The translations under genes and the position numbers were made by a program. The notes under the pieces were generated by a model. The model was not told where the DNA came from. It was given only the letters and a program-made list of their open reading frames with translations, and did no database searches. DNA of 46,808 nt from Verrucomicrobiota bacterium (GTDB taxonomy: Bacteria > Verrucomicrobiota > Verrucomicrobiia > Limisphaerales > UBA9464): contig JBBRQL010000003.1 of NCBI GenBank assembly GCA_038226425.1, positions 1 through 46,808 on the forward strand. The letters are read 5' to 3'. Numbering within the stretch: position 1 is the stretch's first letter; every line of letters begins with the position of its first letter. Shown here in pieces: positions 1-29,281 of the stretch.

Positions 1-1
1 C

Positions 2-574
2 GCGGTCCAGCGGGACCTCCGGAAGGTCCGCATCCTCTCCGGCCTCGCGGCGACGGTCGTCGTCCTCGCGGCCGTCTTCGGGCTGCGCGCCTATCTCGTC
101 GGGAAACGCGAAGCCGTCCTCGCCGCGGCCAGGGCCGAGCTGGCCGATGCCGAGAAGAAACGCCCGGTCTACCGGAAGATGATCCAGCAGGCGGGCGTCG
201 TGGACGACTGGATCAAGGCGGACCGCGATTGGCTGGTCCACTACGCCTATCTCACATCGGTCCTCCCGCCGAGCGAGGAGGTCTACCTGACCTCGCTCGC
301 GGTCAGCGGCCAGGGATCCGTCCGCCTCGCCGTCCAGGCGCGGAGCGGCGAGACCTTGGCGCGCCTCGACAAGCAGCTGCGCGCGGCCGGCTACGACGTC
401 AAACCGGTCGCCATCACGCCGGGACCGGACCGTTTCGGCTACGAGTTCCGTTCGACCGTCGAGCTGACCGTGCCCGACAAGCTCAAGATCGACCTGCACA
501 AGGTGAGGCCCGCCGTCCGCCCGATCGACGATGTGTCGCTCGAGGCCTCGGCCTACAAGCGAGGTGGCGCATGA
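2..574 (+). CDS. PilN/GspL-like inner-membrane assembly protein (5' partial)
   Basis: Frame is open from base 2: TM helix (ILSGLAATVVVLAAVFGL), coiled coil, then a PilN-like ferredoxin fold (LPPSEEVYLTSLAVSGQGSVRLAVQA). Stop overlaps the next ATG (ATGA 571-574). Confidence 0.7.
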   Translation, partial: AVQRDLRKVRILSGLAATVVVLAAVFGLRAYLVGKREAVLAAARAELADAEKKRPVYRKMIQQAGVVDDWIKADRDWLVHYAYLTSVLPPSEEVYLTSLAVSGQGSVRLAVQARSGETLARLDKQLRAAGYDVKPVAITPGPDRFGYEFRSTVELTVPDKLKIDLHKVRPAVRPIDDVSLEASAYKRGGA

Positions 575-1599
575 ACCCGCGCGAGAAGGTCATGGCCGCT
601 GCCGTCGGGGGCGTCGTCGCCCTCGTGCTCGTCGTCGCGGGCGTGCGGTCCGTCCTGTTGGCGCCGTTGCGCGAGATCGACAAGACCACCGCCGTCGTGC
701 GCGAGAAGATCGCGAAGATCCAGGCCGACCGCCGCGCGTACTTCGTGGCCGAGGACAAGCTCAAGACCGTCGCGATGCGGACCTTCGCCGACAGCGTCGA
801 TCCCGCGAGCGCCAAGTCCGGCGAGATCCTCACGCAGCAGATCCTCGCGACGGGGCTGGAGGAATCGGATTTCACCCGCCTGCCGATCCAGCCGCGGAAA
901 CTCCGGGGCGCCTACGAGCTGGGCTGGAACGTCCAGGGCGACGGCCCGCTCACCAAGGTGGTGAACCTGTTGTTCCTCCTGAACGAATCCCCGTGGCTGC
1001 ACCGCACGGAGAACCTCACCGTCGCGAACGGCGACGCGCCGGGCAACGTGCGGGTCCGCTTCCGCTACCTCACCCTCGTGCTGGACCCGGCGCCCGATAT
1101 CGTGAGGACCAACCTCGCGCCGGCCCGGACGCTCGAGTCGCCCGAGCGCCACCTGCTCAACAGCATCGTCTCGCGCGACATCCTGCGGCCCTACATCAAG
1201 CGTCCGCCCGCGCCCGTCCTCCCCGGGCAGCCGCCGCGGCCGGCTTCCAAGCCCGGGGTGCCGCCCGGCCCGGAGACCTTCCGCGTCGTCTCGTTGTCCG
1301 AGTGGCGCGGCCAACCGGAGGTCCACATGCGCGACCTCTCGGCGGGCAAGACCGTCCGCTACCGGCCCGGTGACGAGCTCGCCGGCGGCACCGTCGCGAT
1401 GGTCGATTACCGGTCGCTGCCGATGCCCGGCAACTCGCTGCTCATGTCCTCCAGCCGGTTGATCCTCAAGGTCGGCGCCGATTACTACGCGGTCGAGCGC
1501 GGCCGCACCCTTGCCGAGAAACGCCGGCTGGACGCTTCCGAACTTCCTCCCGAGCTGGCCCAAGCGGCCGCGAAACCCCTTTCCTCTTCCAAGCCATGA
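571..1599 (+). CDS. PilO/GspM-like protein with Pro-rich linker and C-terminal GspC/PilP-like beta domain (342 aa)
   Basis: True start MNPREKVM at 571 (ATGA overlap). 'xxREK' plus TM is typical of GspM/PilO, followed by a ferredoxin-like region (VQGDGPLTKVVNLLFLLNESPWLHR), a Pro-rich stretch, then FRVVSLSEW..VHMRD..KTVRYRPGDELAGGTV. Confidence 0.65.
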   Translation: MNPREKVMAAAVGGVVALVLVVAGVRSVLLAPLREIDKTTAVVREKIAKIQADRRAYFVAEDKLKTVAMRTFADSVDPASAKSGEILTQQILATGLEESDFTRLPIQPRKLRGAYELGWNVQGDGPLTKVVNLLFLLNESPWLHRTENLTVANGDAPGNVRVRFRYLTLVLDPAPDIVRTNLAPARTLESPERHLLNSIVSRDILRPYIKRPPAPVLPGQPPRPASKPGVPPGPETFRVVSLSEWRGQPEVHMRDLSAGKTVRYRPGDELAGGTVAMVDYRSLPMPGNSLLMSSSRLILKVGADYYAVERGRTLAEKRRLDASELPPELAQAAAKPLSSSKP

Positions 1600-4500
1600 A
1601 ACCCATCCGACTGGTCCTCCTCGGTGCTTGCCTGCTGGCCGGCCTCACGCTCGGCGCGCAAGACGCCGCCCGGCCGCCCGCGACCAACCCGCCGGCGTCC
1701 GTGAAGCCCGCGTCGCCGAAGCCCGACGTCGTCAGCGCCAAGACCGCGCCGGCCCGCGACATCCGCTTCCAGTTCGACGGCATCCCGTACTCCGACGTCG
1801 TGGAACGGTTCGCGCAGATGGCCGGACGTCCGCTGCTCTCCGACACCAACGTCGTCGGCTCGCTCACCTACGACGACCCGAACGCCTACACCTACAACGA
1901 GGCGCTCGACACGTTGAACCTCATGCTCGCCATGAAGGGCGTGATGCTGCTCGAGGACGGCAACAACCTGCGGCTCGTCCCGTTCAAGCAGCTCCCGTCG
2001 ATGCCCATCCGCATCATGCGCGGCACCGAGAACGCCGGAGACGTGCGCCCGGGCGAGGTCGTCACCGTCGTGCTCGACGTCGCCAACCTGGAGGCCAAGG
2101 AGGTCGCCGATTCCGTCCTGCCGATGCTCTCCAGCGCCGGTTCCGTCGCGCCGCTCTCGCGCGGCCGCGGCCTCGTCGTCACCGACCGCCTCTCGAACAT
2201 CCAGCGCGTCCGCACGCTGCTCGCCACCATCGGCACCGGCCAGTCCGCCGACCGCCAGATGAAGACCTACACGTTGCAGCACGCCTCCGGCGCCATCGTG
2301 TCGGACCTGCTCAACCGCACCTTCGGCATCGCCACCGCGCCGAAGCGGACCTCGTTCAACCCGAACACCAAGGCCATGGAGGTCCTGCCGCCGGATCCCG
2401 CCGACTACGTGACCTCGGTGTACGACGACGCCTCGCGCACGTTGCTGCTCTTCGGGCCGCCGGACCGATTGGCGCTGGCCGAGGAGCTGGTGAACAAGTT
2501 CGAGCAGAAGGACGGCTCGGCCGGCGACGTCCGCATCTATTACCCGCAATCGATGAAGGCCGACGAGCTGGCGAACTTGATCCGCCAAGCGATCCCCGGC
2601 GTCGCCGCCGCCAACGAATCCGCTTCCGCCGCCGCCACCAAGGCCCGCGTCATCCCCGACCTCGCGCTCAACCGCGTCATCGTCGCCGCGCCGCTCCCCG
2701 GCCAGCTCGACCAGATCGAGCAACTGGTGACCCGCGTGGACAAAGGCGTCCAGGGTGCCGTCGGCCAGAACGGCGAGAACTCGCTGGTGCCGACGCGCTC
2801 GCAGACGATCCAACTCACCAAGATCTTCCGGCCGCGCGCGACCGGCGCGACCAACGTGGCCAGCATCGTCCGCCAGGCGTTGACCCGGCGGAACAGCTCC
2901 GGCCAGGTCGCCACCACGGCCAGCGTGAGCTTCGACGCCGGCAGCCAGAGCGTCGTGGTGACCGGCTCGCCGGCGGATCTCCAGACGGCGACGGACATCG
3001 TATCGCAGATCGAGACCGGCACGTCGCAGCCGACACCGTTGCAGACGCGCTTCATCGATGTCGGCTCGCCCGAGGAGGCCCAGCGCATCCAGCCGCTGGT
3101 GGACCAGCTCTACCGCAACCAGACGGCGGACGGCTCGGCCGGCACGGTCGCGCACGCCAAGATCCTCGCCGACACCGGATCCGGCCGGCTCATCGTCACC
3201 GCGAGCCAAGACCATCTCGCCCGCATCGAGGCGCTGGTGAAGCAGCTCCGCGCGGACCGGCCGGAGGGCATGTCGCGCCATCTCCGGGTGGTCGTGCTGA
3301 AGCACACGCGAACCGACATCGCGTTGCCCGGCATCCAGAGCCTCGTCACCGAGCGGATGGCCGACCGGAGGTTCTCTTCCTTGCCCAAGCCTTCGCTCGT
3401 CGCCGACGCGCCGAACAACCGCATCCTCGTCACCGCGACCGACGAGCAGTTGAAGGAGATCGAGGACGCCGTCGCCGTGGTCGACATCGCCCCGGCGCAG
3501 GCCCAGCGCGAGCTCAGCGTCATCCCGCTCCAGGCGAGGACCGCGACGGAGATCATCCCGCTGGTCACGCAGCTCGTCGGCCAGCTCGCCGCGCCCGGCC
3601 AGCTCGCGCCGACCCTGATGGCCGACCCGACCGGCAAGCAGGTCATCGTGCTCGCCGTCGCCAAGGACCAGGAACGGGTGCGGACGCTGGTGAAGCAGTT
3701 CGACGTCACGGCCGCCACCGCCGCGCCGCGGCAGTTCCGCGGCGTCGAGATCTTCGGCCGCACCGCCGCCGAGTTCACGCCGCTGGTCCAGCAGCTCTAC
3801 CAAGAACAGATCCGCGGGCAGCCCGAGCCCGCCGGCGGCCCGGCGACGTTGATCGCCGAGACCAAGAACAACCGCATCATGGTCAGCGGCGGCGAGAAGG
3901 AGATCGCCCGCGTCGAGGCCATCATCCGCCAGCTCGACCCCGTCGCGGCCAAGGCGTCGAAAGAGGAGACCCGCGTCATCCGCCTCAAGACCGCTTCTGC
4001 CGCGGAGATCGCCGGTCTGGTCGAGAAGAGCCTCAACGCACAGACCCAGCAGGTCCGCGTGCTGCTCGACGCCCGCAGCAACAGCCTCGTCGTCACCGGC
4101 GAACGTGCCGCCGTCGAGGCCGCGTGGCAGATGGTCCAGCAGCTCGACACCCGCGGGGAATCCGGCCCGCGCGAGCTGCGCGTCATCGAGCTCAAGTCCG
4201 CCGATGCCGCGACCGTGGCGCCGATGGTGGGCAACCTCTTCGCCGAGCTGGTGAAGGACCAGCGCGGCGCCGATTACGTCTCCGCGACCAAGGTCGTGCC
4301 CGACACCTTGGCCAACCGCCTCATCGTCACCGGCAGCCACGCCGAGATCGAGCAGGTCGTCGCCCTCGTCGACCGCCTCGACAACGCCCCGCAACAGGCG
4401 CCCGGTGCCCGCGTCTTCAAGCTCAACATGGCCGAGGCCACGATGATGGCGCCCATCGTCTCCAACGCGATGGTGCGCTTCGACGCGCGCGGCCAGGCCG

Positions 4501-7500
4501 TAAAGCGCGTCACCGTCGCCGCCGACGAGAAGTCCAACTCGCTCATCGTCTCGGGCAGCCGTTCCGACCTGCAGGACGTCGAGTCCGTCATCGAGAAGCT
4601 CGACGGCGAATCCACCGGCAAGGAGCGCGTGCTCCGCATCTTCGACGTGAAGGGCGACCCCGACGCGCTCGCGGCCACCGTGCAGAAGGTCTTCGCCGCG
4701 CAGAACCCCGGCCGGAACATCGGCGGCCTGCTCAGCATCACGCCCGAGCCCGCCGGCAAGCGCCTGCTCGTGCTCGCCCCGCCCGCCACGCTCGCCCAGG
4801 TCGCCACCATGGTCACCGCGCTCGACGCCAACCCCGACCAGGGCATCCGCGAGCTCCATCCGGTCGAGCTGAAGAACGCGACGACGGCCGACCTGCTCCC
4901 GAAGGTCCGCCAGATCTACACCGAGCAGTCCCAGGGCAAGACCATCAAGGCCGCGTCCATCTACGGCGACGCCTCCGGCACCCGCCTGCTGGTCCACGGC
5001 ACCGAGGAACAGGCGTCTTCCATCCGCCAGATCGTCTCGACGATGGAGAGCCAGGCACCGTTGGCGCGGGAGACCAGGACGTTCGACCTGGGCAAGCTTT
5101 CCGAGGCGCAGCGCGTGCTGCCCCTGCTCCAGCAGTTCTACAAGGACCAGGTCGCCAGCAGCCCGCAATCGGGCATCGCCGACGCCCAGATCGTCAGCGA
5201 CGGCAAGACCGGACGCCTCCTGGTCAGCGCGCGCGCCGACCACCTGAAACTGATCGAGGACCTCGTCTCCCGACTCCAGGTCGTCGATGCCGGAGCGTCG
5301 GCGGCCCGCGAGACCCGGACTTTCGATGTCGGCACCGCGGCCGATGTGCAGCGCCTCCAACCGCTCGTCGCGCAGCTCTACAAGGACCAGTGGAAGGACA
5401 AGCAGGACACCGATCCGGCCGACGCCCAGATCATCGCCGACGCGAAGACCGGCCGCCTCATCGTCACCGGCAAGCCCGAGCACCTGAAGCAGATCGAGGC
5501 CATCCTCCAGCAGCTCGGCACCGGCAAGGCCCGCACCGAGAACCGCCAGACCCGCATCATCGACCTCACCACCGCCAGCGCCGTCGAGCTCGCCACCACC
5601 GTCCGCACGCTCTACGCCGAGGAGGCCAAGGGCCGTCTCGGCGGCCAGACGGCCGACACGCTCATCACGCCCGACACCGGCGGCAACCGCCTCATCCTCG
5701 TCGGCGACACCAACGAGCTGACCGCCGTCGAGGAGATCGTCCGCAAGCTCGACAAAGGCAGCGCCCAGAGCGCTTCCGCCCGCGTCTTCAAGATCAAGTC
5801 CGCAGACCCCGAGAAGGTCGCGGAGATCCTCACCACGTCGCTCGTCCGGTACGACGCCTACGGCCGGCCGCAGAAGCGGGCCACGGTCTCGGTCGATGCC
5901 AAGACCCGGACGCTGATCGTGACCGGCGACCCGAAGGAGCTCCAGGGCGTCTCGCTCATCATCGAGCAGCTCGACCAATCGCTCGGCGCCGTGCCCGAAC
6001 GCAAGACCAAGGTCATCACCCTCAAGCAGGGCCGTGCCGTGCTGCTTTCTCCGAAAGTCCGCCAGCTTTACAACGACCGGATCAAGAGCCTGCCTGAGCT
6101 GTCCACGTCGGAGATCCTCATCCTCGATGAGGGGGAGAGCAACCAGCTGATCGTCGCCGGCAACGATGCCCAACTGAAAGTGGTCGAGCAGATCGTCGAC
6201 GAACTGCAGTCGGCCCAACTCTCGCGGGGCGTGCGCGAAACGCGGCTGCTGGACGTGGGAAGCGCGGACGAACTGGCCCGCCTTCAACCGCTCGTCCAAG
6301 GGCTCTACAAGGATCGCATCCGGGGGCGTGACGCCAGCGATCCAGTGGACGCGCAGATCATCACCGACACCAAGAACGCGCGGTTCATCGTCACCGCCCG
6401 CACGAACCACATCGCCGAGATCGAGTCCATCATCGCGCAGCTGCGCAGCGGCGATGCCGCGTTCCAGCCCCGTGACACGCGGGTGATCGACCTCGCGACG
6501 GCCAACGCCGTGGAGCTCACCACGACGGTCCGCACCCTCTACACCGAGCAGGCCAAGAACCGCCCGGGCGCGCCCGCCGCCGACACCTTGATCACGCCCG
6601 ACACCAGCGGGAACCGCATCATCGTCACCGGCGCCACCAACGAGCTCGCCGTGGTCGAGGACATCATCCGCAAGCTCGACAAGGTCGGCGCCCAGAGCGC
6701 CAGCACGCGGGTCTTCAAGCTCAAGTCCGCCGATGCCGACAAGGTCGTCGAGATCCTCGCCACCGCGCTCGTCCGCTACGACGCCTACGGCCGCCCGCAG
6801 AAGCGCGTCAGCGTCGTCACCGATCCCAAGACCCGCACCATCATCGCCACCGGCGACCCCAAGGAGCTCCAGTCCGCCGCCGTCATCATCGAGCAGCTCG
6901 ACACGTCGCTCGGCACGCAGGCCGGTCGTTCGATGCGGGTGCTGACCGTGAAGAACCGCTCCGTCGGCGAGCTCGGCTCCAAGGTGCGTCAGGTCTACAC
7001 CGACCGCAGCAAGAGCCAGCCGGAGCTCGGCGGCAGCGAGGCCCTGATCCTCGAGGATGCCGCGAGCAACCAGCTCATCGTCGCCGGCACCGAGCCCCAG
7101 CTGGTCGCCATCGAGGAGATCGCCGTGCTCCTCCAGGCCGGAGGAGGCGGCGAGAACGGCCGCGCTGTCCGCGTCGTCTCCCTCGAGCGCAGCAACGCGA
7201 CCAGCCTGGTGGCGATGTTGTCCCAGCTCTACGCCAAGCAGATCGCCAGCCCGGATCCCGCGGTCCGCTTGATGGTCAGCGCCGGCGGGAACGAGCGCAC
7301 GCTCGTCGTCGACGCGCCCGCCGCCACCGCCGAGAAGGTCGAGCAGCTGGTGAAATCGATGGACCAGACCGATCCCGCCGCCCAGAACGTCATCCAGACG
7401 GTCCGCCTCACCAAGAGCCGCGCCGAGGACCTCGCCGAGGCCGTCAACCGCACGCTCACCAACCGCATCGGCTCCGGTCCCGGCGCCGGCCGCCGCGTCG

Positions 7501-10500
7501 CCGTCACCGCCGTCCCGGGCGCCAACAGCCTGCTCATCAACGGCCCGACCAACGCGGTGCAGGACGTCCTCAAGATCGTCCACGAGCTCGACACCGACGG
7601 CAACGGCAACCCGGGCGACATCGAGGTGCGGATCTACAAGCTCGAGAACGGCGTCGCCCGCGAGGTCTCGTCCGTGCTCCAGCAGCTGCTCCAGAACGTC
7701 ACCCGCAACCTCCGCGGCGGATCCGCCGACGGCGAAGGACGTCGCGGCCCGGCCGTCAGCGTGTCGATCGACGAACGGTCCAACAGCCTCATCGTCTCCG
7801 CCACGCCGGCGCACTTCCGCGTGGTCGAGAAGATCCTGCCGACGCTCGACAAGGCGCCCGAACGGTCCGACCGCGACGTCCAGTTCGTCTGGCTGCGCAA
7901 GGCCAAGGCCTTCGACGTCTCCTCCAAGCTCGACACGCTCTTCGAGGACCGTCCGCGCTCCGCCCGCCCGGTGATCGAGCCCGATATCTCGGCCAATTCG
8001 CTGACCATCATCGCCAAGCGCGGTGACATCCCGCAGATCCAGGACCTCGTCTCGCGGCTCGACGAGCAGGGCAAGGATTCCGCGGTGCAGGTGCGGTTGC
8101 GTCCGCTGGAACGCGTCGCCGCCGACCAGATGGCGAAGATGCTCGAGAGCATCTACCCGCAGGTCTCCGGCAAGTCGCTCCGTGTCGCCGACAAGGTCCC
8201 GGCCGCTCCCCCCGAGAAGAAGACCGACGACACCACGCCCGCCCCGGAGCCCGAGGTGGTCATCGCCGTGGACAAGGCGGCGAACGCCCTGATCCTTTCC
8301 GGACCGGCCCAGGAACTCGACAACGTCGAGCGCCTCGTCACCGACCTGTCGATCAACTCTCACGGAGACGAATCCGAGTTCCGGCTCTTCCCGATCAAGG
8401 ACGCCGATCCCGTGATCGTCGCCCGCACCCTCACCGAGCTGCTCAAGCAGGAGCCGGTCGCGGTGCCCTCCGCGTCGGGCGCCCCGATCCTCGTTTCGCC
8501 CAAGCAGCGCATCACCGTGGTCGCCGAGCCGCGCACGCGGTCCGTCATCGTCCGCGGACGGCCGACCGATTTCGCGCTGATGGAGTCGCTCATCCGCCAG
8601 CTCGACAACGCCGGGCAGATCACCCAGCTCGGCTTCCACATCGTGCCGTTGACCAACGCGCCTCCTGAGAAGGTCCTCCCGCTCGTGCAGCAGATGGTCG
8701 CGCAGCTCGCGGCCTCTCGGCCGGGAGAACCGGTGACCGTCGCGATGGACCAGCGTTCCCGCGGGCTCGTGGTGATCGGACGCGACACCATGGCCGCCCA
8801 GGTCGAGAAGATGATCCGTTCGCTCGACCAGCCCACGGCCAACGTCGAGGCGGTGGTGCAGATCATCTCGCTCCGCAAGACCGCCGCCGCACAGGTCGCG
8901 GCCGTCCTCCAAGGCATGCTCAAGCCCGGTGCCCAGGGCGAGTCGACCTCCGAATCCCGCGAGCTCCAGGACCAGGTCCGCCGCCTCAAGGTCCGCAACG
9001 ACGCCGGCGACGAGGTGGTGCTCGACCTCTCCAAGCCCGTCAAGATCGCCGCCGATCCTGCCGCCGGCGGCGGCAACCGGCTCGTCCTCACCTCGACGCC
9101 CGACAACCTCAAGGCCCTCGCCGCGCTGGTCGAGATGATGGATTCCGTGCCGGTGCTCGACGGCGTGAAGGTCCGCTTCGTGCCGCTCGAGCACGCCGAC
9201 GCCGCTGCCGTCGCGCAGGCCTTGACCACCATCTTCACCCAGGGCCGTCAGCTCGCCGCCGGCCCCGCCGGCCCGAACGCCGTCCCGGCCGACCAGGGCA
9301 AGGCGCTCGTGAGCCCGCTCAACGTCGCCGTCGACGCCCGGAGCAACACGCTCATCCTGAGCGGCCAGCCGGAGAGCCTCGAGCTCGCGCAGAAGGTCGT
9401 CGCCGACATGGACCGCGAGCAGATGAAGTTCGTGACCGACGTGAAGCTCTTCCGCCTCAAGCACGCCTCGGCCACGCGCCTCGTGCCGCTGCTCCAGTCC
9501 GCCTTCGCCGAAGGTCCGTCGGTCCCCGGCACCGAGGGCTTGTCCACCCAGATCACCCGCCTCCGCACCCTCCAGGAAGGCCAGCGCGCCAAGCTCAACG
9601 ACACGCCCAAGACCCGCGCGGCGCTGACCATCCAGGCGGACGACCAGGCCAACATCCTCGTCGTCGCCGCCCGCAGCGACAACATGCCGCTCATCGCCGA
9701 CATCATCGAGCAGCTCGACATCCCTGCCGCGTCCGGCCTCGAGACCGTGCGGATCTATCCGCTCGTCCACGCCGATCCCGCCGCGGTCCAGAAGATCCTG
9801 ACCGACCTCTACACCGGTCCGCGCGCGACGCCGCTGCGCAACGAGGACCGCCCGGTGATCACCGTGGACGCCCGCACCGGTTCGCTGATCGTCGCCGGCA
9901 ACGGCAAAGCGTTCGGCGTCATCGAGGGGTTGCTCAAGCAGCTCGACCAGAAGCTGCCCTTCGACCTCCGGGACATCGCGCTCATCCCGCTGGAGCACGC
10001 CGACGCCAACGTCGTCGCCCCGACGCTGCAGAAGCTGATGGATGCCCGAGTCACCCAGCGCGCCACCCTCAACCAGGGCCAGGCCGACGCGCTCAAGGTC
10101 GTGATCATGACCGACCAGCGCAGCAACGCGCTGCTCGTCGGCGGCGCGCGCGAGGGCTTCGAGCTGGTCCAGAACCTCGCCAAGCAGCTCGACCAGGCCA
10201 GCCCCGCGCTGAGCGGTCGGGTCCGGTTGATCCCGATGCAATACGCCGACGCGCGCGTCGTGGCCGGCACGATGACCACGCTCTTCGAGCAGCGCTACGC
10301 GGCCATCCGCACCGCCGACGTCCAGCGCAGCAAGCCGATCATCCTCGCCGACCCGCGCAGCAACTCGCTGCTTGTCGCCGCCAGCCAGGACGACAACCGG
10401 ACGCTCGACGACCTGTTGAAGCGCCTCGACGCCAAGCAGGACAACCCCGCCCTCGCGCTCACGGTCGTGCCGCTGAAGCACAACGATTCCGCCCGCGTCG

Positions 10501-13457
10501 CCACCATGGTCGAGACCATCTTCACCGCGCGGATGCGGGCGCAGGTCCTGCCCGGCCAGACGCCGCTCCCGAGCGAGCAGATCAAGGTCGAGCCCGACGC
10601 GCTGAACAACGCGCTCGTCGTCTCCTCCAGCAAGGAGAACCTGGAGCTGATCCAGTCCCTCGTCGCCAAGCTCGACCAGGAGCCGACCATCGCCGACGGC
10701 GTGTTCGAGACCTTCACGCTCGAGTTCGCCGACGCGCAGCGCGTGGCGACCATCCTGAAGTCCCTCGTCGACCAGGGCCTCTACCGTCCGGGCCGCACCG
10801 GCGGCGCCGCGACGAAGGGCAACAACGGGCGCGACGTGCTCTCCATCAGCGTCGATCCGCGCAGCAACACGCTCATCGTGAGCGCCAGCCCGGAGAACCT
10901 CGTGATCGTCCGCGACGTCGTGAAGCGCATCGACACCAAGGACCTCGCGGCCACCGCCGACGTCCGCCTCTACGCGCTGAAGAACGCCCGCGCCAGCTCG
11001 CTGGCCACGACGCTCCAGCAGTTCTTCCAGGCCAAGCAGCGCGCCGATTCCATCGCGGTCAACGCCAACGAGCGCAGCGTCCCCGCGACCGTGCTCGCCG
11101 ACGACCGGGTCAACACGATCCTCGTCACCGGCGGCAAGGAGGCCTTCGACCTCGTGGACCGCATGTTGCCCGAGCTCGACGGCGAGAGCGTCTTCTCCCG
11201 GCTGAACTTCAAGGTCTTCCCCCTCAAGAAGGCCACGGCGATGAAGCTGCAGGCCACCTTGCGGCCGATCTTCGCCAACCGCCCGCCCAAGGTGAAGGGC
11301 GAGCCCGTCGATCCCGTGACCATCATCGCCGACCAATGGGTCAACGCGCTGCTGGTCGGCGCGACGGTGGACGACATGGGCACGGTCAGCGGGCTGATCG
11401 AGAAGCTCGACAGCGAACCGACCGAGACCGGCATCGCCATCCACGTCTTCCCGCTCGCCAAGGCCGACGCCCGCAAGGTCGCGACCACCGTGCAGGGGCT
11501 CTTCCGCGAGAACCTGCCCAACCAGGTCCTTCCGATCACCGTATCGGCCGACGAACGCATCAACGCCATCGTCGTCTCCTGCGGCGAGACCGACGCCAAG
11601 CGCATCGGCGAGCTGGTCCACAAGCTCGACACCGACCAGGTCGCGAAGGTCAGCGAGATCAAGGTCTTCCCGCTCCGTTACGCCAAGGCCGAACCGCTCG
11701 CGGCCATCCTCAACACCGCGCTGAACACCAAGGCGGCGCCGATCAACGACCCGAGCCCGAACGCGCAATCCGTGCTCCAGTTCATCACCCGCACCCAGGA
11801 AGGACAAGAGCTCGTCACCGCCGCGCTGAAGGAGTCCGTGCTCATCACGCCGGATCCGCGGATGAACTCGCTCATCGTCTCCGGCCCGGTCGATTACATG
11901 GGCCTGCTGGAGCAGATCGTGACGCGCCTCGACGCCAGCTCGCCGCAGATGGCGAAGATCAAGGTCTTCGCCCTGCGCAACGCCGACGCGCGCCAGATGG
12001 GCGAGCTGCTCACCCAGATGTTCCGCATGACGCAGAACGCCTCGCCCAACACCCAGCGCTCCGTGCAGTACACGCTGGTCCGTCCGGTCGCCGGCGACAC
12101 CGGGAACGGCGAGGAGGAATCGCTCGCCTCGGCGACGCTGGGGACCGCCGAGCAGTCGGCGCTGACGGTCACGATCGACCCGCGCACGAACAGCCTGCTC
12201 ATCGGCGGCACCGACCACTACGTCGCGCTGGTCTCGCAGCTGATCGAGTCGCTCGATTCCAGCACGGCGCTGGAGCGCAACTCCGAGGTGATCCGCCTCA
12301 AGAACTCGCAGGCCGTCGAGGTCGCGGCGGCGATACGCAGCTTCCTCGACCAGGAGCGGCTGAAGCTGATCCAGGCGCTCGGCGCCGACGCCGCGGCCGC
12401 CATGCAGCGCTCGATGGAGCAGGAGGTCGCCGTCGTCGCCGAGACCTCGAGCAACACGCTGCTGCTCTCCGCGAACCGACGCTATTTCGAGCAGGTCCGC
12501 CACCTCATCGACGAGCTCGACCAACCGCAGCCGCAGGTGCTCATCCAGGTGCTGCTCGCCGAGGTGACCTTGGACAACGCCACCGACCTGGGCATGGAGT
12601 GGAACTACAAGGGCGCCAGCGGCAACACCACCTACGCCGTCGGCACCGACCTCGGGGTCGCCGAGCAGCTCAAGAACCTCGGCGGCTTCTCCGCCGCTGT
12701 GACCGGCAGCGATTTCACCTTCCTGCTCCGCGCCTTGAAAGAACAGGGCCGGCTCGAGGTGCTCAGCCGACCGCAGATCGTGACCGCGGACAACAAACCG
12801 GCCACCATCAACATCGGCCAGCGCGTGCCGCTGATCGACCAGAGCCGCCTCGACGCCCAGAACAACCTCACCACCTCGTTCCGCTACGAGGACGTCGGCG
12901 TGAACCTCACCGTCACTCCGAAGATCAGCCCCGACGGCTTCGTGAAGATGGAGATCGGCACGACCAACAGCGCGATCAGCAGCTCCAGCGTCCAGGTCAA
13001 CAAATCGTCCTCCGTCCCCATCATCAACCAGCGCAAGGCCAGCACCACCGTCAGCGCCCAGAGCGGCCAGACCATCATCATCGGCGGCCTCATCGCAACC
13101 ACCGACGACAAGCGCGTGAAGAAGATGCCCATCATGGGCGACATCCCCTACCTCGGCGCGTTGTTCCGCACGACGTCCACCAAGCGCGAGCGCAAGGAGC
13201 TGCTGATCCTCCTCACGCCCCAGGTCCTGGTGAACAACCAGTCCCGGGTGCCGTTGCGCGATCCGGACGACGTCCTGCGCCAGCAGCTGGATTCCTCGGG
13301 CTTCAAGCCGTTGATAAAGCATGGAGAGATGCAGCATCGGCTGCTCGACCCTTTGTACCCCACCAACCCGCCTCCGCGCCGGAACATCATCATCACGCCG
13401 TCGGCGCCCGCGGCCACGCCGCCTCCGAGACCCGCATCCGCGTCCAAGGTCCTCTAG
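1596..13457 (+). CDS. gspD: Giant secretin (GspD/PilQ family), 3953 aa: signal peptide, N0, ~43 Secretin_N repeats, secretin core
   Basis: Sec signal, N0 (IRFQFDGIPYSDVVERFAQMAG), repeated 'V..L..A.A..V...L...D.RSNSLIV.G......I..LD' units, and a C-terminal core from ~12531 (PQVLIQVLLAEV, VLSRPQIVTADNKPATINIG, YEDVGVNLTVTPKI, GQTIIIGGLI, KMPIMGDIPYLGALFR, ELLILLTPQV). Confidence 0.95.
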   Translation: MKPIRLVLLGACLLAGLTLGAQDAARPPATNPPASVKPASPKPDVVSAKTAPARDIRFQFDGIPYSDVVERFAQMAGRPLLSDTNVVGSLTYDDPNAYTYNEALDTLNLMLAMKGVMLLEDGNNLRLVPFKQLPSMPIRIMRGTENAGDVRPGEVVTVVLDVANLEAKEVADSVLPMLSSAGSVAPLSRGRGLVVTDRLSNIQRVRTLLATIGTGQSADRQMKTYTLQHASGAIVSDLLNRTFGIATAPKRTSFNPNTKAMEVLPPDPADYVTSVYDDASRTLLLFGPPDRLALAEELVNKFEQKDGSAGDVRIYYPQSMKADELANLIRQAIPGVAAANESASAAATKARVIPDLALNRVIVAAPLPGQLDQIEQLVTRVDKGVQGAVGQNGENSLVPTRSQTIQLTKIFRPRATGATNVASIVRQALTRRNSSGQVATTASVSFDAGSQSVVVTGSPADLQTATDIVSQIETGTSQPTPLQTRFIDVGSPEEAQRIQPLVDQLYRNQTADGSAGTVAHAKILADTGSGRLIVTASQDHLARIEALVKQLRADRPEGMSRHLRVVVLKHTRTDIALPGIQSLVTERMADRRFSSLPKPSLVADAPNNRILVTATDEQLKEIEDAVAVVDIAPAQAQRELSVIPLQARTATEIIPLVTQLVGQLAAPGQLAPTLMADPTGKQVIVLAVAKDQERVRTLVKQFDVTAATAAPRQFRGVEIFGRTAAEFTPLVQQLYQEQIRGQPEPAGGPATLIAETKNNRIMVSGGEKEIARVEAIIRQLDPVAAKASKEETRVIRLKTASAAEIAGLVEKSLNAQTQQVRVLLDARSNSLVVTGERAAVEAAWQMVQQLDTRGESGPRELRVIELKSADAATVAPMVGNLFAELVKDQRGADYVSATKVVPDTLANRLIVTGSHAEIEQVVALVDRLDNAPQQAPGARVFKLNMAEATMMAPIVSNAMVRFDARGQAVKRVTVAADEKSNSLIVSGSRSDLQDVESVIEKLDGESTGKERVLRIFDVKGDPDALAATVQKVFAAQNPGRNIGGLLSITPEPAGKRLLVLAPPATLAQVATMVTALDANPDQGIRELHPVELKNATTADLLPKVRQIYTEQSQGKTIKAASIYGDASGTRLLVHGTEEQASSIRQIVSTMESQAPLARETRTFDLGKLSEAQRVLPLLQQFYKDQVASSPQSGIADAQIVSDGKTGRLLVSARADHLKLIEDLVSRLQVVDAGASAARETRTFDVGTAADVQRLQPLVAQLYKDQWKDKQDTDPADAQIIADAKTGRLIVTGKPEHLKQIEAILQQLGTGKARTENRQTRIIDLTTASAVELATTVRTLYAEEAKGRLGGQTADTLITPDTGGNRLILVGDTNELTAVEEIVRKLDKGSAQSASARVFKIKSADPEKVAEILTTSLVRYDAYGRPQKRATVSVDAKTRTLIVTGDPKELQGVSLIIEQLDQSLGAVPERKTKVITLKQGRAVLLSPKVRQLYNDRIKSLPELSTSEILILDEGESNQLIVAGNDAQLKVVEQIVDELQSAQLSRGVRETRLLDVGSADELARLQPLVQGLYKDRIRGRDASDPVDAQIITDTKNARFIVTARTNHIAEIESIIAQLRSGDAAFQPRDTRVIDLATANAVELTTTVRTLYTEQAKNRPGAPAADTLITPDTSGNRIIVTGATNELAVVEDIIRKLDKVGAQSASTRVFKLKSADADKVVEILATALVRYDAYGRPQKRVSVVTDPKTRTIIATGDPKELQSAAVIIEQLDTSLGTQAGRSMRVLTVKNRSVGELGSKVRQVYTDRSKSQPELGGSEALILEDAASNQLIVAGTEPQLVAIEEIAVLLQAGGGGENGRAVRVVSLERSNATSLVAMLSQLYAKQIASPDPAVRLMVSAGGNERTLVVDAPAATAEKVEQLVKSMDQTDPAAQNVIQTVRLTKSRAEDLAEAVNRTLTNRIGSGPGAGRRVAVTAVPGANSLLINGPTNAVQDVLKIVHELDTDGNGNPGDIEVRIYKLENGVAREVSSVLQQLLQNVTRNLRGGSADGEGRRGPAVSVSIDERSNSLIVSATPAHFRVVEKILPTLDKAPERSDRDVQFVWLRKAKAFDVSSKLDTLFEDRPRSARPVIEPDISANSLTIIAKRGDIPQIQDLVSRLDEQGKDSAVQVRLRPLERVAADQMAKMLESIYPQVSGKSLRVADKVPAAPPEKKTDDTTPAPEPEVVIAVDKAANALILSGPAQELDNVERLVTDLSINSHGDESEFRLFPIKDADPVIVARTLTELLKQEPVAVPSASGAPILVSPKQRITVVAEPRTRSVIVRGRPTDFALMESLIRQLDNAGQITQLGFHIVPLTNAPPEKVLPLVQQMVAQLAASRPGEPVTVAMDQRSRGLVVIGRDTMAAQVEKMIRSLDQPTANVEAVVQIISLRKTAAAQVAAVLQGMLKPGAQGESTSESRELQDQVRRLKVRNDAGDEVVLDLSKPVKIAADPAAGGGNRLVLTSTPDNLKALAALVEMMDSVPVLDGVKVRFVPLEHADAAAVAQALTTIFTQGRQLAAGPAGPNAVPADQGKALVSPLNVAVDARSNTLILSGQPESLELAQKVVADMDREQMKFVTDVKLFRLKHASATRLVPLLQSAFAEGPSVPGTEGLSTQITRLRTLQEGQRAKLNDTPKTRAALTIQADDQANILVVAARSDNMPLIADIIEQLDIPAASGLETVRIYPLVHADPAAVQKILTDLYTGPRATPLRNEDRPVITVDARTGSLIVAGNGKAFGVIEGLLKQLDQKLPFDLRDIALIPLEHADANVVAPTLQKLMDARVTQRATLNQGQADALKVVIMTDQRSNALLVGGAREGFELVQNLAKQLDQASPALSGRVRLIPMQYADARVVAGTMTTLFEQRYAAIRTADVQRSKPIILADPRSNSLLVAASQDDNRTLDDLLKRLDAKQDNPALALTVVPLKHNDSARVATMVETIFTARMRAQVLPGQTPLPSEQIKVEPDALNNALVVSSSKENLELIQSLVAKLDQEPTIADGVFETFTLEFADAQRVATILKSLVDQGLYRPGRTGGAATKGNNGRDVLSISVDPRSNTLIVSASPENLVIVRDVVKRIDTKDLAATADVRLYALKNARASSLATTLQQFFQAKQRADSIAVNANERSVPATVLADDRVNTILVTGGKEAFDLVDRMLPELDGESVFSRLNFKVFPLKKATAMKLQATLRPIFANRPPKVKGEPVDPVTIIADQWVNALLVGATVDDMGTVSGLIEKLDSEPTETGIAIHVFPLAKADARKVATTVQGLFRENLPNQVLPITVSADERINAIVVSCGETDAKRIGELVHKLDTDQVAKVSEIKVFPLRYAKAEPLAAILNTALNTKAAPINDPSPNAQSVLQFITRTQEGQELVTAALKESVLITPDPRMNSLIVSGPVDYMGLLEQIVTRLDASSPQMAKIKVFALRNADARQMGELLTQMFRMTQNASPNTQRSVQYTLVRPVAGDTGNGEEESLASATLGTAEQSALTVTIDPRTNSLLIGGTDHYVALVSQLIESLDSSTALERNSEVIRLKNSQAVEVAAAIRSFLDQERLKLIQALGADAAAAMQRSMEQEVAVVAETSSNTLLLSANRRYFEQVRHLIDELDQPQPQVLIQVLLAEVTLDNATDLGMEWNYKGASGNTTYAVGTDLGVAEQLKNLGGFSAAVTGSDFTFLLRALKEQGRLEVLSRPQIVTADNKPATINIGQRVPLIDQSRLDAQNNLTTSFRYEDVGVNLTVTPKISPDGFVKMEIGTTNSAISSSSVQVNKSSSVPIINQRKASTTVSAQSGQTIIIGGLIATTDDKRVKKMPIMGDIPYLGALFRTTSTKRERKELLILLTPQVLVNNQSRVPLRDPDDVLRQQLDSSGFKPLIKHGEMQHRLLDPLYPTNPPPRRNIIITPSAPAATPPPRPASASKVL
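5307..7140 (+). repeat. Intragenic tandem duplication of a 4-domain, 927-bp (309-aa) module within the secretin
   Basis: RETR at 5307 and 6234, and LVRYDAYGRPQKR at ~5841 and ~6768. Both offsets are 927 bp. Confidence 0.9.
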
Positions 13458-13465
13458 AACCTGCC

Positions 13466-13984
13466 ATGACCCACCCATCCGTGACGACGTCGTCCCTCGC
13501 CGCGCGCCTCGCCTGCATCACGGCGCTGTGGATGCTCGGCGCCGGTTGCGGCGGAGCTGGGAAGGCCGCGCGCGGCGGCCGGGACGCCGTGGCGGACCTC
13601 CATCTGTTCGGCGTGCCCGTGGCGTTGGACCTCGACGGCGTGCCGGGTCCGGACGGCATCGGCGTGCGCATCTACGCCAGCGGCCCGGGCGTCGCCCGCG
13701 GGGTCGCCATCCGGCAAGGCACGCTGGAAGTGGTGTTGTTCGAAGGCGTCGTCGACGCCGGCGCGATAGGCAAGACCCAGCCGCTCAAGGTCTGGTCCTT
13801 CGATGCGGCGGCGCTGAAGCCGCTCGTCGCCGAGACCTCGCTCGGTCTGGGCTACCAGCTCGCGCTGCGCTGGGGCGCGGAGAGTCCGGCCGACAACGTG
13901 GTGACGGTGGTCGCGCGCTACCGGAGCCCTGCCGGCGCGGTGATCTACTCCACGAGCAACACGATCTCGGTGCGGATGAAGTGA
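13466..13984 (+). CDS. Lipoprotein, candidate pilotin/secretin accessory (172 aa)
   Basis: ATG 8 nt after the secretin stop, hydrophobic signal ending in lipobox-like LGAG-C, beta-rich mature domain. The function is inferred from position only. Confidence 0.65.
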   Translation: MTHPSVTTSSLAARLACITALWMLGAGCGGAGKAARGGRDAVADLHLFGVPVALDLDGVPGPDGIGVRIYASGPGVARGVAIRQGTLEVVLFEGVVDAGAIGKTQPLKVWSFDAAALKPLVAETSLGLGYQLALRWGAESPADNVVTVVARYRSPAGAVIYSTSNTISVRMK

Positions 13985-14273
13985 GCCATCCGCGCTGTTC
14001 TCTTCGACGCATCCGATACCGCACACCCTCCCCTCCGCCGCCCGCCGCCGCCGACCACGCGACCCGGGATCGCGCGCCGACCGCAGAGCCTTGCGAAATC
14101 ACCAGCGGCCACGCCTCCGGGTCCGCCGCGACCATGGGATCGGCGCCCCGGACATCGAGCAAAGCGTAGCTGGAGAATTCCTCGACTCGCATGGAAACCA
14201 CCGGGCGACGGAGCGGTCCGCCATACCCTCGACAGCGGACTGTGTTTCCCACGATGGATGTCCGCACGTTGTC

Positions 14274-14310: not shown

Positions 14311-14396
<86 letters not shown>

Positions 14397-23384: not shown

Positions 23385-23558
23385 GACGAGACCTCGGTCT
23401 CCTCAGTCGATCGGACTTTGATTCCACGACGGTCCACGACTCCGGATCGCGCCTGACTTGATCACGGTCCGGTGACGACTGTCGGGCGCATCTTGACTTG
23501 GGCACATCGGCCCCGGACGGTGCCGACCGATCATCCACGCATGGAAACGCCTCCCGTC

Positions 23559-24929
23559 ATGTCCGCTGAAACTAAACCCGCCGTGCCGGGTATTCCGGGC
23601 GGCAAAATGACCGCTCCCAAGAAGAAAAGCTCCGGCTGGATATGGTGGTGCCTGCTCGTCGTCCTGCTCCTCGTGGGCGGCGGAGGCTACGCCGGATGGC
23701 AGAAGTTCCGTCCCCAACCGCTCGCGGTGCAGACCGATAAGGTCGCGCGGCGCGGCCTCACCGAGATCGTCACCGCCACCGGCAAGGTGCAGCCGGTCCT
23801 CCAGGTCAAGATCAGCCCCGAGGTCTCCGGCGAGATCATCGAGCTGCCGGTGAAAGAGGGGCAGGCGGTGAAGAAGGGCGACCTGCTCGTGCGGATCAAG
23901 CCCGACTTCTACATCGCCAGCCGCAACTCCGCGCAGGCGAACTTCCAGTCGGCTGAATCCGGGCGGGCCACCTCCATCGCGCAGGCGGCGAAGGCCGGAT
24001 CGGAGTTCAAGCGGAACAAGGAGCTGTTCGAGCGCAAACTGGTGAGCGAATCGGTCTACGACGACTACCGCACCGCCTTCGATGTCGCCAAGGCCCAGTC
24101 CGAGAGCTCCGGCCACCAGATCGAGATGGCCAAGCAGACCCTCAAGAAATCCGAGGAGGACCTGCTCAAGTGCACCATCTACAGCCCGATCGACGGCACC
24201 GTCAGCAAGCTCATCTCCGAGAAGGGCGAGCGCGTCGTCGGCACCGGCATGATGGCCGGCACGGAGATCATGACCGTGGCCGACCTCACCGAGATGGAGG
24301 CGCGCGTCGAGGTCGGCGAAGTGGACGTCGTGCTCGTGCAGCTCGGCCATCGGGTCCGGTTGGAGGTCGATTCCTTCCGCGACCGCAAGTTCGCCGGTGT
24401 CGTCACCCAGATCGCCAACTCCGCGAAGACCACCGGTATCAACACGCAGGGGGAGGCGACCAAGTTCGAGGTCCGGATCCGCATCGCCGACAAGGCCCGT
24501 TTCCTCCCCGGCATGAGCGCCACCGCCGAGGTCGAGACCCGCTACCGCACCAACGTGCTCACGGTGCCGATCCAAGCGGTGACGACCCGCCTGCCGAAGG
24601 GCGTCAAGAAGGACGATGCGAAGCCCGCGATGGCCAAAGGCGAGGACAAGGACCTGGAGCAAGAACTCGCCGACCTGAGCAAGAAGAAGGACAAGTCCGG
24701 ACCGAAGCCGATCGACGTGGTCTTCGCGGTCGAGGCCGGCAAGGCGAAGATGTTGCCGGTGAAAAGGGGCATCAGCGACGAGGCCTACTACGAGATCTTG
24801 GAGGGCCTCACCGAGGGCCAGGAGATCGTGACCGGCAGCTACAAGGCGATCGCGCGCGAGCTGGAGGACGAGAAACAGGCCCGCGTGGACAACACGAAGA
24901 AGAACGCGAAACGGGACGAGAAGAAGTGA
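23559..24929 (+). CDS. Efflux periplasmic adaptor subunit (MacA/HlyD family)
   Basis: N-terminal TM, ATGKVQP..ISPEVSGEIIELPVKEGQAVKKGDLL, alpha hairpin, IYSPIDGTV, PGMSA. Start could be 23541 or 23607. Confidence 0.92.
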   Translation: MSAETKPAVPGIPGGKMTAPKKKSSGWIWWCLLVVLLLVGGGGYAGWQKFRPQPLAVQTDKVARRGLTEIVTATGKVQPVLQVKISPEVSGEIIELPVKEGQAVKKGDLLVRIKPDFYIASRNSAQANFQSAESGRATSIAQAAKAGSEFKRNKELFERKLVSESVYDDYRTAFDVAKAQSESSGHQIEMAKQTLKKSEEDLLKCTIYSPIDGTVSKLISEKGERVVGTGMMAGTEIMTVADLTEMEARVEVGEVDVVLVQLGHRVRLEVDSFRDRKFAGVVTQIANSAKTTGINTQGEATKFEVRIRIADKARFLPGMSATAEVETRYRTNVLTVPIQAVTTRLPKGVKKDDAKPAMAKGEDKDLEQELADLSKKKDKSGPKPIDVVFAVEAGKAKMLPVKRGISDEAYYEILEGLTEGQEIVTGSYKAIARELEDEKQARVDNTKKNAKRDEKK

Positions 24930-25041
24930 GATGATGCCCCGCGCCACACACCCCGTTCCACGCGTCATGCCCGACAAGGTCCGTCCGACCCCGGGCAAGG
25001 TGGCACGTGGTGCGTGATGCGTGGCACACTAGATCGCCGCC

Positions 25042-25766
<725 letters not shown>

Positions 25767-25770
<4 letters not shown>

Positions 25771-27930: not shown

Positions 27931-28027
27931 GGATGAACGCCCGGGTCACCAAGTCCCCCAGCGGTCGTCGATCCGTCCAACCCGGGCTCCGCGCCCACGC
28001 ATATGGGCCGCCGCCCTCCCCTTCCCC

Positions 28028-29281
<1,254 letters not shown>

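Follow-up and report, generated by a model that had tools for sequence, protein, structure and literature searches.

A GspD-type secretin with N0 and 43 N-domains in a type II secretion cluster of Verrucomicrobiota

Secretins are among the best studied machines of the bacterial envelope. [quoted passage not shown] As far as we know, the N-domains of all solved secretins form rings, and the range of periplasmic rings known to us is three to six. To our knowledge, the debate about the cell plan of PVC bacteria has lacked molecular markers for envelope geometry.

The solved T2SS secretins GspD, PulD, XcpQ, EpsD and ExeD (5wq7, 6hcg, 5wln) have chains of 524-657 residues with three N-type units (N1-N3), whereas the protein described here, in the following called the giant secretin, has 3953 aa and 43 such units. 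It resembles them in the pore, in N0, in the fold of the N-domains and in a gene context with gspE/F, G-K and L/M/C-like genes. A precedent for extra ring domains that bridge a wide periplasm is PilQ of Thermus thermophilus. In the excerpts of the report available (PMC5745081), this protein of 757 aa forms six stacked rings (N0-N5) over 350 A, is described as reaching across a wide periplasm and is called 'exceptionally long', its six rings ranking among the largest systems characterised. By the same excerpts it is a secretin for type IV pili and DNA uptake, and its six rings compare with 44 predicted here.

The window, i.e. the whole stretch of 46,808 nt that was analysed, carries the end of the cluster to which the giant secretin belongs (Table 1). 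With a genome of 69% GC, the GC content of the gene by codon position (0.67/0.44/0.95) is what a genuine gene should show. An antisense frame of 3997 aa (1485..13478) was also considered and rejected as a gene; its translation is nonsense rich in R/G/D/A, and it is a shadow frame of the high GC content.

Table 1. Features of the giant secretin locus (positions in the window)
Feature	Position	Strand	Basis and remarks
GspL-like gene (PilM/PilN fusion), 3' part	2..574	+	96% identical to L010 protein residues 382-571
Gene B, 342 aa	571..1599	+	AF2 and fold comparison
Giant secretin gene	1596..13457	+	3953 aa, 424.9 kDa, stop-free frame
Putative Sec-type signal peptide MKPIRLVLLGACLLAGLTLGAQ	1596..1658	+	Translation read by eye
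Proline-rich spacer after signal peptide	to ~aa 54	+	Translation
N0 domain, aa ~55-140	1758..2015	+	GspD 5wq7 aligned from its residue 12 onwards, E 1.2e-5
N1 domain, aa ~141-224, first Secretin_N-type unit	2016..2267	+	Alignment to 5wq7 N1 and XcpQ N0-N1 structures
42 further Secretin_N-type units, aa 225-3650	2268..12545	+	Pfam, custom HMM, AF2
4-unit block present twice (units 14-17, 18-21)	5313..7166	+	Unit-to-unit scores
Secretin pore domain PF00263, aa 3713-3878	12732..13229	+	E 4.5e-49, model positions 1-168/169
Proline-rich C-terminal tail, aa 3886-3953	13251..13454	+	Poorly conserved
Small lipoprotein, 172 aa, lipobox LGAGC	13466..13984	+	GC3 0.91, conserved
Terminator-like hairpin, end of lipoprotein gene	13968..13997	+	2 sites vs 0.9 expected, weak

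Domain architecture of the giant secretin

The initial annotation had described an uninterrupted ORF of 3953 aa with a signal peptide, N0, about 43 KH-like Secretin_N units at ~2050-12530 and an intact secretin core. This description was borne out: the frame runs from 1596 to 13457 on the plus strand, the signal peptide was recognised by eye, the unit array lies at 2016-12545 and the core matches PF00263 with an E-value of 4.5e-49. Pfam detects Secretin_N in 39 stretches (1142 bits). A custom HMM, iterated on the giant secretin itself, finds 42 units (aa 235-3657); N1 escaped this HMM and was added from the structure-sequence alignment. The total is N0 plus 43 Secretin_N-type units, in agreement with the count of the initial annotation, and with 3953 aa the protein falls outside the canonical N0-N1-N2-N3 architecture. 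An AF2 model of units 9-12 shows the order beta-alpha-beta-beta-alpha, the ring-building fold of secretin N-domains, four times. Foldseek searches with this model returned the T2SS secretins ExeD, GspD, EpsD, PulD and XcpQ at the top (prob 1.00).

The N0-N1-N2 part of the protein aligns to GspD, and the closest solved sequences to the C-terminal 664 aa are those of T2SS GspD (5wq7, 1.6e-43), XcpQ and PulD. The pore domain is matched by solved GspD, PilQ and InvG chains. With the NCBIfam model for GspD (TIGR02517) the giant secretin reaches 1175.8 bits at a cut-off of 351.35 (best stretch, model positions 193-594/600), a score inflated by 22 repeated stretches, whereas the PilQ model (TIGR02515) gives 417.8 bits. 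The AMIN family is absent among the Pfam matches of the protein. Among nine orthologues N0 is 66-100% identical; the C-terminal tail reaches 23-51% identity in eight orthologues and 89% in that of locus L010, with a dN/dS of 0.29.

Type II secretion cluster and neighbouring genes

The initial annotation had pointed upstream for GspE/F and pseudopilins, and these genes are present. At locus L010, which is 96% identical to that of the window, the secretin is preceded by T2SSF, T2SSE, T2SSG, GspH, weak T2SSJ, weak T2SSK and PilM_2, and in the window's genome this T2SS set is found on contig C170; the pseudopilins J, K and I are supported by weak Pfam matches or by an N_methyl motif. Contig C170 also carries the 5' part of the GspL-like gene with which the window begins. 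The L010 counterpart of the GspL-like protein carries PilM_2, and the PilN match in the window's part is weak (E 0.022, under the cut-off). The stop codon of this gene overlaps the start of gene B (ATGA at 571-574), and overlaps of start and stop codons link all three genes, GspL-like, gene B and giant secretin. The giant secretin closes the series of large genes in a cluster with gspE, gspF and the pseudopilins G to K. At the divergent loci L029, L032 and L033 a giant secretin is found without upstream T2SS genes.

By sequence, gene B matches no Pfam family, and the sole match in a profile search of PDB sequences was to ATP synthase subunit b, through a coiled coil (E 0.037); its kinship is read from fold comparison (Foldseek, Z scores) alone. 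In the AF2 model (pLDDT 80.7) a TM helix with a coiled coil is followed by a ferredoxin-like domain of GspM/PilO type; a linker rich in proline then leads to a C-terminal beta domain resembling GspC-HR/PilP. It compares with PilO 2rjz at Z 11.6, with EpsM at Z 7.5 and with PilP 2ivw at Z 7.3. Residues 234-311 superpose on the HR domain of GspC (3oss_C, whose structure was determined together with GspD N0) at Z 8.1 with an rmsd of 2.0 over 61 aligned positions. About 60 residues of linker separate this HR-like domain from the membrane-anchored domain. Compared with the T2SS, the GspM-like and HR-like domains stand in one chain, so the platform is differently fused. In 18 of 23 loci gene B lies directly 5' of the giant secretin, and a PilM-like gene precedes it. 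Its PilO-like domain also resembles Amuc_1100 of Akkermansia (6lad; Foldseek prob 1.0, Z 7.5). The Amuc_1098-1100 cluster is nevertheless a different, pilus-type system, and the Amuc_1098 family (model of 805 positions) matches the giant secretin pore only weakly, at 67 bits vs a cut-off of 750.

Whereas T2SS secretins come with an S-domain or pilotin, neither is recognised in this system, and a conserved lipoprotein is encoded downstream. It follows the secretin directly in 12 other loci, with two more partial matches at locus ends (tblastn). It has no Pfam family, and Atlas returned only hypothetical proteins in unnamed clusters. From its position and lipobox we would guess at a pilotin or an accessory factor.

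The giant secretin is thus encoded together with gspE/F, G, H-K and a platform of L/M/C type. A better match to PilQ, an AMIN domain or a pilMNOPQ context with PilT, as would mark a PilQ, was not found. The protein is a GspD-type secretin of a complete T2SS cluster of Limisphaerales/Pedosphaerales, in which the periplasmic module is multiplied to N0 and 43 N-domains. The platform proteins of the cluster are, in fold, PilM/N/O/P-like as much as GspL/M/C-like, and this could also be read as a cluster for polysaccharide export or for the assembly of a long filament resembling a pilus, with the tube as its sheath. T2SS-type secretins have been reported as slime nozzles of cyanobacteria and myxobacteria (excerpts of PMC12475490), and Thermus PilQ, in the excerpts cited above, serves both pili and DNA uptake. 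However, T2SSG with GspH/J/K-type minor pseudopilins is typical of the T2SS, the GspD model scores 1176 bits and the PilQ model 418, and no PilT-like retraction ATPase was seen within the cluster, the only one examined. We therefore consider a fibre or polymer conduit improbable.

Conservation and length steps of the array

The best 120 of 421 homologues have 3258-5121 aa. Of 151 genomes sampled from the order, 36 carry a giant secretin; a 95% complete genome from the window's own genus returned no match. In one genome search all 12 giant secretin loci found were from MAGs. When the first 2999 aa were compared with 401 genomes across the phylum, the sole match at E <= 1e-60 was the genome of the window itself. 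This phylum-wide search included only two other genomes of the order and was a stricter first look, so its result is a floor. Likewise, out of about 1950 matches the PF00263 survey covers the 150 best, and further long secretins may exist. No published description of secretins of this size was found, in agreement with the initial annotation, which knew of none; most subscription journals and supplements lie outside the coverage of this literature search, which is no proof of absence.

Nine orthologues with 56-96% identity are collinear unit for unit and have no gap of at least 25 inside the array. Their identity per unit is comparable to that of the pore domain, and the dN/dS is 0.10-0.15 for the blocks of the array and 0.098 for the pore. 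By these ratios, every unit of the array is under purifying selection.

DNA contigs of run X1, possibly the source sample, cover positions 1-14000 of the window at near identity, and contigs of run X2, from a separate study, cover 1904-13422 piecewise. Orthologues from independent assemblies are collinear. The gene is accompanied over its full length by RNA-library contigs of two studies with 90-99% likeness; they are no more than a hint of its transcription, since such contigs can also stem from DNA. Gaps between them, e.g., 6072-6538 and 7940-8406 in X15, carry no evidential weight. Joints in contigs along the gene were not taken as deletions; their sides are 20-25 letters long and often belong to other organisms or repeats.

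That the gene is an artefact of assembly, which the initial annotation had already held to be unlikely, or of annotation is contradicted by these data; it is real and conserved. Collapse or expansion during assembly is unlikely because the units are too diverged, with best scores of 60-153 outside the duplicated block. Processing of a precursor to a secretin of normal size, which the initial annotation had named as a possible refutation, found nothing in its favour. Purifying selection acts on every unit, with dN/dS ~0.1 throughout, which makes such processing unlikely, and the long homologues, the 36 carrier genomes and the collinear orthologues stand against it as well. Artefact and precursor taken together are, in our judgement, highly improbable.

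Within the array two classes of units can be distinguished. The period is 77.5 +/- 6.6 aa for units 2-25 and 86.8 +/- 18.4 aa for units 26-42, which carry loop inserts; the best partner lies in the own half for 22 of 23 units of the N-half and for 16 of 19 units of the C-half. Unit-to-unit scores are 149-265 within the duplicated block vs 60-153 for every other best pair. Orthologues of 4276-5155 aa have insertions of ~308 aa after aa 1843-1853. The array grows by copies of the 4-unit block at one hot spot, the 3' end of the duplicated block. For the query and 120 homologues, protein length follows 80.0 aa x units + 636 (r = 0.96). Among these 121 proteins 37 share a count of 42 units and 25 a count of 41, and 65 of the 120 homologues measure 3890-4010 aa. 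Judged from these sequences, the number of units is quantised and conserved.

Proposed conduit and alternative arrangements

As a whole, the data are best explained by a GspD-type secretin of the T2SS that serves as a stacked-ring conduit for pseudopilus and cargo, an explanation to which we give an even chance of being right. About 12-16 protomers would insert a C-terminal double barrel in the outer membrane. By analogy with the solved secretins, the N-domains would stack as coaxial rings of 3-4 nm each into a conduit of 130-175 nm, and a 15-mer would have a mass of ~6 MDa; the initial annotation had envisaged a tube on the order of 100 nm and several MDa. The far end, the N0 ring, would dock on gene B through its HR-like domain, with gene B held in the inner membrane next to the GspL-like protein; N0 (alignment, E 1.2e-5) and the HR-like domain (Z 8.1) are candidate docking partners. 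A GspG pseudopilus with an H-I-J-K cap, driven by GspE/F, would polymerise within the tube and push cargo towards the pore. In this way fibre and cargo would be led by the tube over an enlarged or locally widened periplasm ('paryphoplasm'), and the tube may itself set the membrane spacing like a ruler. Such a paryphoplasm is reported for the subdivision-3 strain Ellin514, in the excerpts available without a width figure (PMC2647929).

A tube of 130-175 nm takes up a large share of a small cell, which weighs against the tube reading. An oligomer prediction with four copies of units 9-10 (alignment A1) scored 0.01 vs a mark of 0.42, without folded controls, and speaks neither for nor against ring formation.

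In the AF2 monomer of units 9-12 the pTM is 0.31 and the linkers of 5-8 residues have low confidence, so that the units may be strung loosely like beads. Together with the two unit classes and their differing periods, this is consistent with a pore on flexible tethers, in which only the C-proximal units (26-42 or fewer) would form rings and the compact N-proximal units would be flexible or elastic chains that let N0 hold the inner-membrane platform across a variable periplasm. The same genome also has seven other matches to the Secretin domain, in open frames of 248-1087 aa (one cut by the contig end) with 0-5 units each by the custom HMM. Secretins of ordinary size fit an ordinary distance between inner and outer membrane, at least at their sites, and speak against a uniformly enlarged periplasm. 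However, the N-proximal units are conserved like the pore and constant in length in nine orthologues, which exceeds the need of a tether; the linkers are short, and N-domains of solved secretins are known to us only as rings. Flexible tethers therefore appear rather unlikely.

The normal-size secretins elsewhere in the cell would also suit a compact assembly, in which the array doubles back in concentric or zig-zag layers and forms a multi-walled vestibule or cargo antechamber within a near-normal periplasm. N0 must sit near the inner membrane, given the ~60-residue linker between the HR-like and the membrane-anchored domain, and the pore sits in the outer membrane; growth by 4-unit blocks could mirror a structural repeat of higher order. 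Yet no secretin is known to fold in this way, sharp reversals are hard to make with short linkers and turn points are unmarked in the sequence, so that this arrangement is pure inference and, to us, quite improbable, slightly more so than the fibre or polymer conduit.

Extended to its relatives, the stacked-ring conduit would mean that a whole clade of T2SS secretins in Verrucomicrobia builds rigid tubes of 100-200 nm, whose length, in steps of one or four rings, would be a molecular ruler that fixes or matches the distance between inner and outer membrane and a determinant of the enlarged PVC periplasm. We put this forward tentatively, below an even chance. Tubes of this kind would be the longest secretion channels known and a natural modular protein nanotube with gene-encoded length. 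Between natural variants, each 4-unit block would be expected to change the length of the tube by some 12-16 nm. A conserved family with what would be 36-57 rings per protomer, a complete T2SS cluster and selection on every unit raises the questions how a pseudopilus piston operates beyond 100 nm, how a tube of 6 MDa is assembled and what the true envelope geometry of subdivision-3 Verrucomicrobia is.

The initial annotation had also mentioned enlarged secretins in PVC bacteria. Complete secretins of intermediate size (1633-1868 aa) were indeed found, with a signal peptide and 12-14 units by the custom HMM, i.e., about one third of the unit number of the giant secretin, and with pores 38-43% identical to its own. 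Two of them, the only ones with a source label, are labelled Phycisphaerae or Phycisphaerales. These proteins suggest a PVC-wide trend to long secretins.

GspD-type secretin and its gene cluster

The giant secretin is a GspD-type protein with 44 periplasmic domains that is encoded with a full set of type II secretion system (T2SS) genes. With NCBIfam it reaches 1176 bits for the GspD equivalog versus 418 for PilQ and 410 for SctC. The best solved matches of its C-terminal 664 aa are T2SS secretins (5wq7 at 1.6e-43, XcpQ, PulD), followed more weakly by PilQ (~1e-31) and then InvG (~1e-17). Pfam places the Secretin pore domain at aa 3713-3878 and recognises 39 stretches as Secretin_N. A self-iterated HMM resolves 42 units; N0 and one further unit are added by the first 330 aa, which can be aligned with the N0-N1-N2 part of E. 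coli GspD (5wq7). The protein thus starts with a signal peptide and a proline-rich spacer, continues with N0 and 43 N-type units, and closes with the pore domain and a poorly conserved tail. The period is 77.5 +/- 6.6 aa in units 2-25 and 86.8 +/- 18.4 aa, with loop inserts, in units 26-42.

Units 9-12 (aa 856-1160), aligned with 22 orthologous stretches from the loci of relatives, were used for a fold model (pLDDT 79.3), which has beta-alpha-beta-beta-alpha in each unit; its linkers are of low confidence, pTM is 0.31, and the orientation between neighbouring units in the monomer is left undefined. Foldseek gave 35 matches at E <= 0.001, led by ExeD, GspD, EpsD, PulD and XcpQ N0-N2, all with probability 1.00. 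The initial annotation had proposed about 43 Secretin_N units of KH-like fold and an intact core; the fold is confirmed by the model and this ranking, and the count by the 42 HMM units plus N1.

The reading frame comprises 3953 codons without stop and encodes a monomer of 424.9 kDa (computed). GC is 0.67/0.44/0.95 by codon position and 65-70% in the window (46.8 kb). An antisense frame of 3997 open codons, longer than the real gene, was rejected as a gene as its product is R/G/D/A-rich nonsense; such a shadow frame is expected at high GC. The proline-rich spacer behind the signal peptide carries small in-frame insertions that differ between strains (15 nt in one RNA-library contig, 3 nt in one DNA contig), and the secretin of L010, the locus of a 96% identical orthologue, is 6 aa longer overall.

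The first three genes of the window overlap start to stop (571-574 and 1596-1599). The window opens contig C3 of a genome of 4.38 Mb (384 contigs, 88.7% complete), and L010, with 10 kb upstream, was used for the upstream context. Upstream GspE/F and pseudopilins, which had been put forward for checking, are present there as T2SSE, T2SSF, T2SSG and GspH, and the same genes lie on C170, a contig of the own genome ending within the PilM-like gene. A tblastn search with these proteins places the PilM-like gene and gene B immediately before the giant secretin in 18 of 23 loci, and it also detects G-K where the flank is long enough. Among the five loci without a match, two have < 450 nt of flank and three (L029, L032, L033) have other genes there. 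These three, from genomes G473, G539 and G401, encode divergent giant secretins of 4118-4539 aa without upstream gspG-K/L/M; L033 has a prepilin-like ORF (6279-7073) in their place, and L032 keeps the downstream lipoprotein gene.

No sequence family was found for gene B. Its model (pLDDT 80.7) runs from a TM helix with coiled coil through a ferredoxin-like domain and a disordered proline-rich linker to a beta domain. For the ferredoxin-like domain the Z scores are 11.6 with PilO, 7.5 with EpsM and 7.2/7.0 with XcpY/EpsL; the beta domain matches PilP (7.3, 6.6) and GspB (6.6), where values below 8 can reflect a common arrangement. For the beta domain the highest non-helical match is the HR domain of GspC in its complex with GspD (3oss_C; Z 8.1, rmsd 2.0, 61 aligned). 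Gene B encodes an inner-membrane protein with a predicted HR-like domain, a type known to bind N0.

Features of the window, of the region upstream in L010 and of other contigs (C) of the same genome
Feature	Location	Strand	Remarks
Gene A, GspL-like	2-574	+	3' part
Gene B	571-1599	+	342 aa
Giant secretin	1596-13457	+	3953 aa
Proline-rich spacer	~1687-1728		
Antisense open frame	1485-13478	-	rejected
Lipoprotein gene	13466-13984	+	172 aa, lipobox LGAGC; directly behind giant secretin
tRNA gene	14314-14396	-	Rfam RF00005, 60.6 bits; gene-poor stretch between secretin operon and DUF520 gene
HlyD/MacB-type ABC exporter set	23472-29281		
AbiEii nucleotidyltransferase-like ORF	25841-26710	+	weak, E 6.6e-5; overlaps start of MacB-like gene frame
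Large subtilase	29284-33159	+	Peptidase_S8 with PA domain, bacterial TSP3 repeat; after exporter set
T2SSF	L010, upstream gene 1		Pfam
T2SSE with MshEN	L010, upstream gene 2		Pfam
T2SSG with N_methyl	L010, upstream gene 3		Pfam
GspH	L010, upstream gene 4		Pfam
N_methyl protein	L010, upstream gene 5		Pfam
T2SSJ	L010, upstream gene 6		Pfam, weak
T2SSK/HHH	L010, upstream gene 7		Pfam, weak
PilM_2 protein	L010, upstream gene 8		Pfam; 571 aa, C-terminal part = gene A; then gene B, secretin
Other Secretin-domain matches	C2:7631-9070, C2:41342-44602, C1:23702-26503, C112:8874-11414, C208:2498-5572, C277:4003-4989, C13:14843-15586		

A conserved family of giant secretins

Within the length band searched, 421 of 1787 scored database candidates are homologues at E <= 0.001; the best 120 have 3258-5121 aa, 42-96% identity and the source labels Limisphaerales, Pedosphaera, Verrucomicrobia and, once, Methylomirabilota. 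In the family as a whole two members, P0120 and P0289, carry this last label, which could be a binning error or gene transfer. Within the same order, 36 of 151 genomes (25 of 107 genera) have a match to the first 2999 aa at E <= 1e-100, with open frames of 2500-5155 aa where no contig end cuts them; one same-genus genome, 95% complete, has no match at this threshold. Of 401 phylum-wide genomes, none besides the own genome reached 1e-60, a count to be read as a floor. The giant secretin belongs to a conserved family and is not an assembly artefact, which had already been thought unlikely.

In a search of 1.84 billion representatives with the pore region (aa 3560-3953), the best 150 matches included 118 of at least 2000 aa and 85 of at least 3500 aa, up to a maximum of 5532 aa (57 units). 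All 21 with < 1200 aa start within an N-unit and are thus fragments, so the nearest pore domains come almost all from giants. An intermediate class emerges among relatives of 691-2000 aa: the complete proteins measure 1633-1868 aa, begin with a signal peptide and contain 12-14 units, and two of them carry the label Phycisphaerae or Phycisphaerales. The other open frames among the best 150 of about 1950 Secretin-domain matches in the phylum have 311-1339 aa.

Window 1-14000 is tiled by DNA contigs from run X1 (0.96 of words; perhaps the source sample), and a different study contributes run X2, with coverage of 1904-13422. Contigs of two RNA libraries (X15 and X16; two studies, fresh or lake water) match in pieces from 367 to 13190 with 90-99% likeness, a hint that close relatives transcribe the gene.

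Build and growth of the N-domain array

Nine orthologues (56-96% identity) show no gap of at least 25 residues within the array and have their own counterpart for every unit, with unit identities of 22-100% versus 60-95% for the pore domain. Compared with L010, the whole gene has a dN/dS of 0.12; the array blocks give 0.097-0.153, the pore 0.098 and the tail 0.29. The units fall into two similarity groups, N-half and C-half: the best partner comes from the same half for 22 of 23 units in the former and 16 of 19 in the latter. Close copies are confined to units 14-17 versus 18-21 (scores 149-265; other best pairs 60-153), and the extra units of longer orthologues, typically about 308 aa or four units, lie at a single site after aa ~1843-1853, the end of unit 21. 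Collinearity, unit similarity and the single site together show an old, position-specific array that grows in four-unit blocks at this central hot spot. For the query and 120 homologues, length equals 80.0 x units + 636 aa (r = 0.96), with modes at 42 (37 proteins), 41 (25), 43 (14) and 46 units (13); 65 of the 120 homologues fall within 3890-4010 aa.

Possible assembly and downstream genes

The giant secretin works like a T2SS GspD and by most tests is one, departing from it solely in the canonical N0-N3 architecture. Family members are labelled 'GspD/PulD (secretin)' or 'secretin N-terminal domain-containing protein' in databases, so the sequences are already known; no paper describing giant secretins was found in the full text of main articles from open-access and some subscription journals. 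The nearest functional precedent is Thermus PilQ, which is 350 A long with six rings and a pore (PMC5745081).

If the protomers stack their N-domains as rings of 3-4 nm each, a tube of 130-175 nm would result, and 15 copies would make an oligomer of 6.3 MDa. N0 would lie within reach of the ~60-residue linker of gene B and the pore in the outer membrane, so that the array must fill the space between, and a straight stack would require the periplasm to be very wide, if only in places. The paryphoplasm of Ellin514, a subdivision-3 strain, is reported without a width (PMC2647929) and would fit such a periplasm. Against a straight tube stand the seven other Secretin-domain matches of the own genome, whose open frames span 248-1087 aa. 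We give the straight tube about an even chance and rank after it a flexible tether or a folded assembly formed by the array, as well as a conduit for a fibre or polymer. Together with GspE/GspF paralogues on C2, C51, C85, C112 and C167, the seven matches indicate several T2SS or pilus systems in this genome.

Twelve other loci keep the lipoprotein gene behind the secretin, and two more show partial matches; no known family was found for its product, a candidate pilotin. In the window the gene is followed by a terminator-like hairpin and the tRNA gene on the other strand. The other window genes are housekeeping and transport genes unrelated to the secretin. The AbiEii-like ORF may be no real gene, and the subtilase is possibly a secreted protein.
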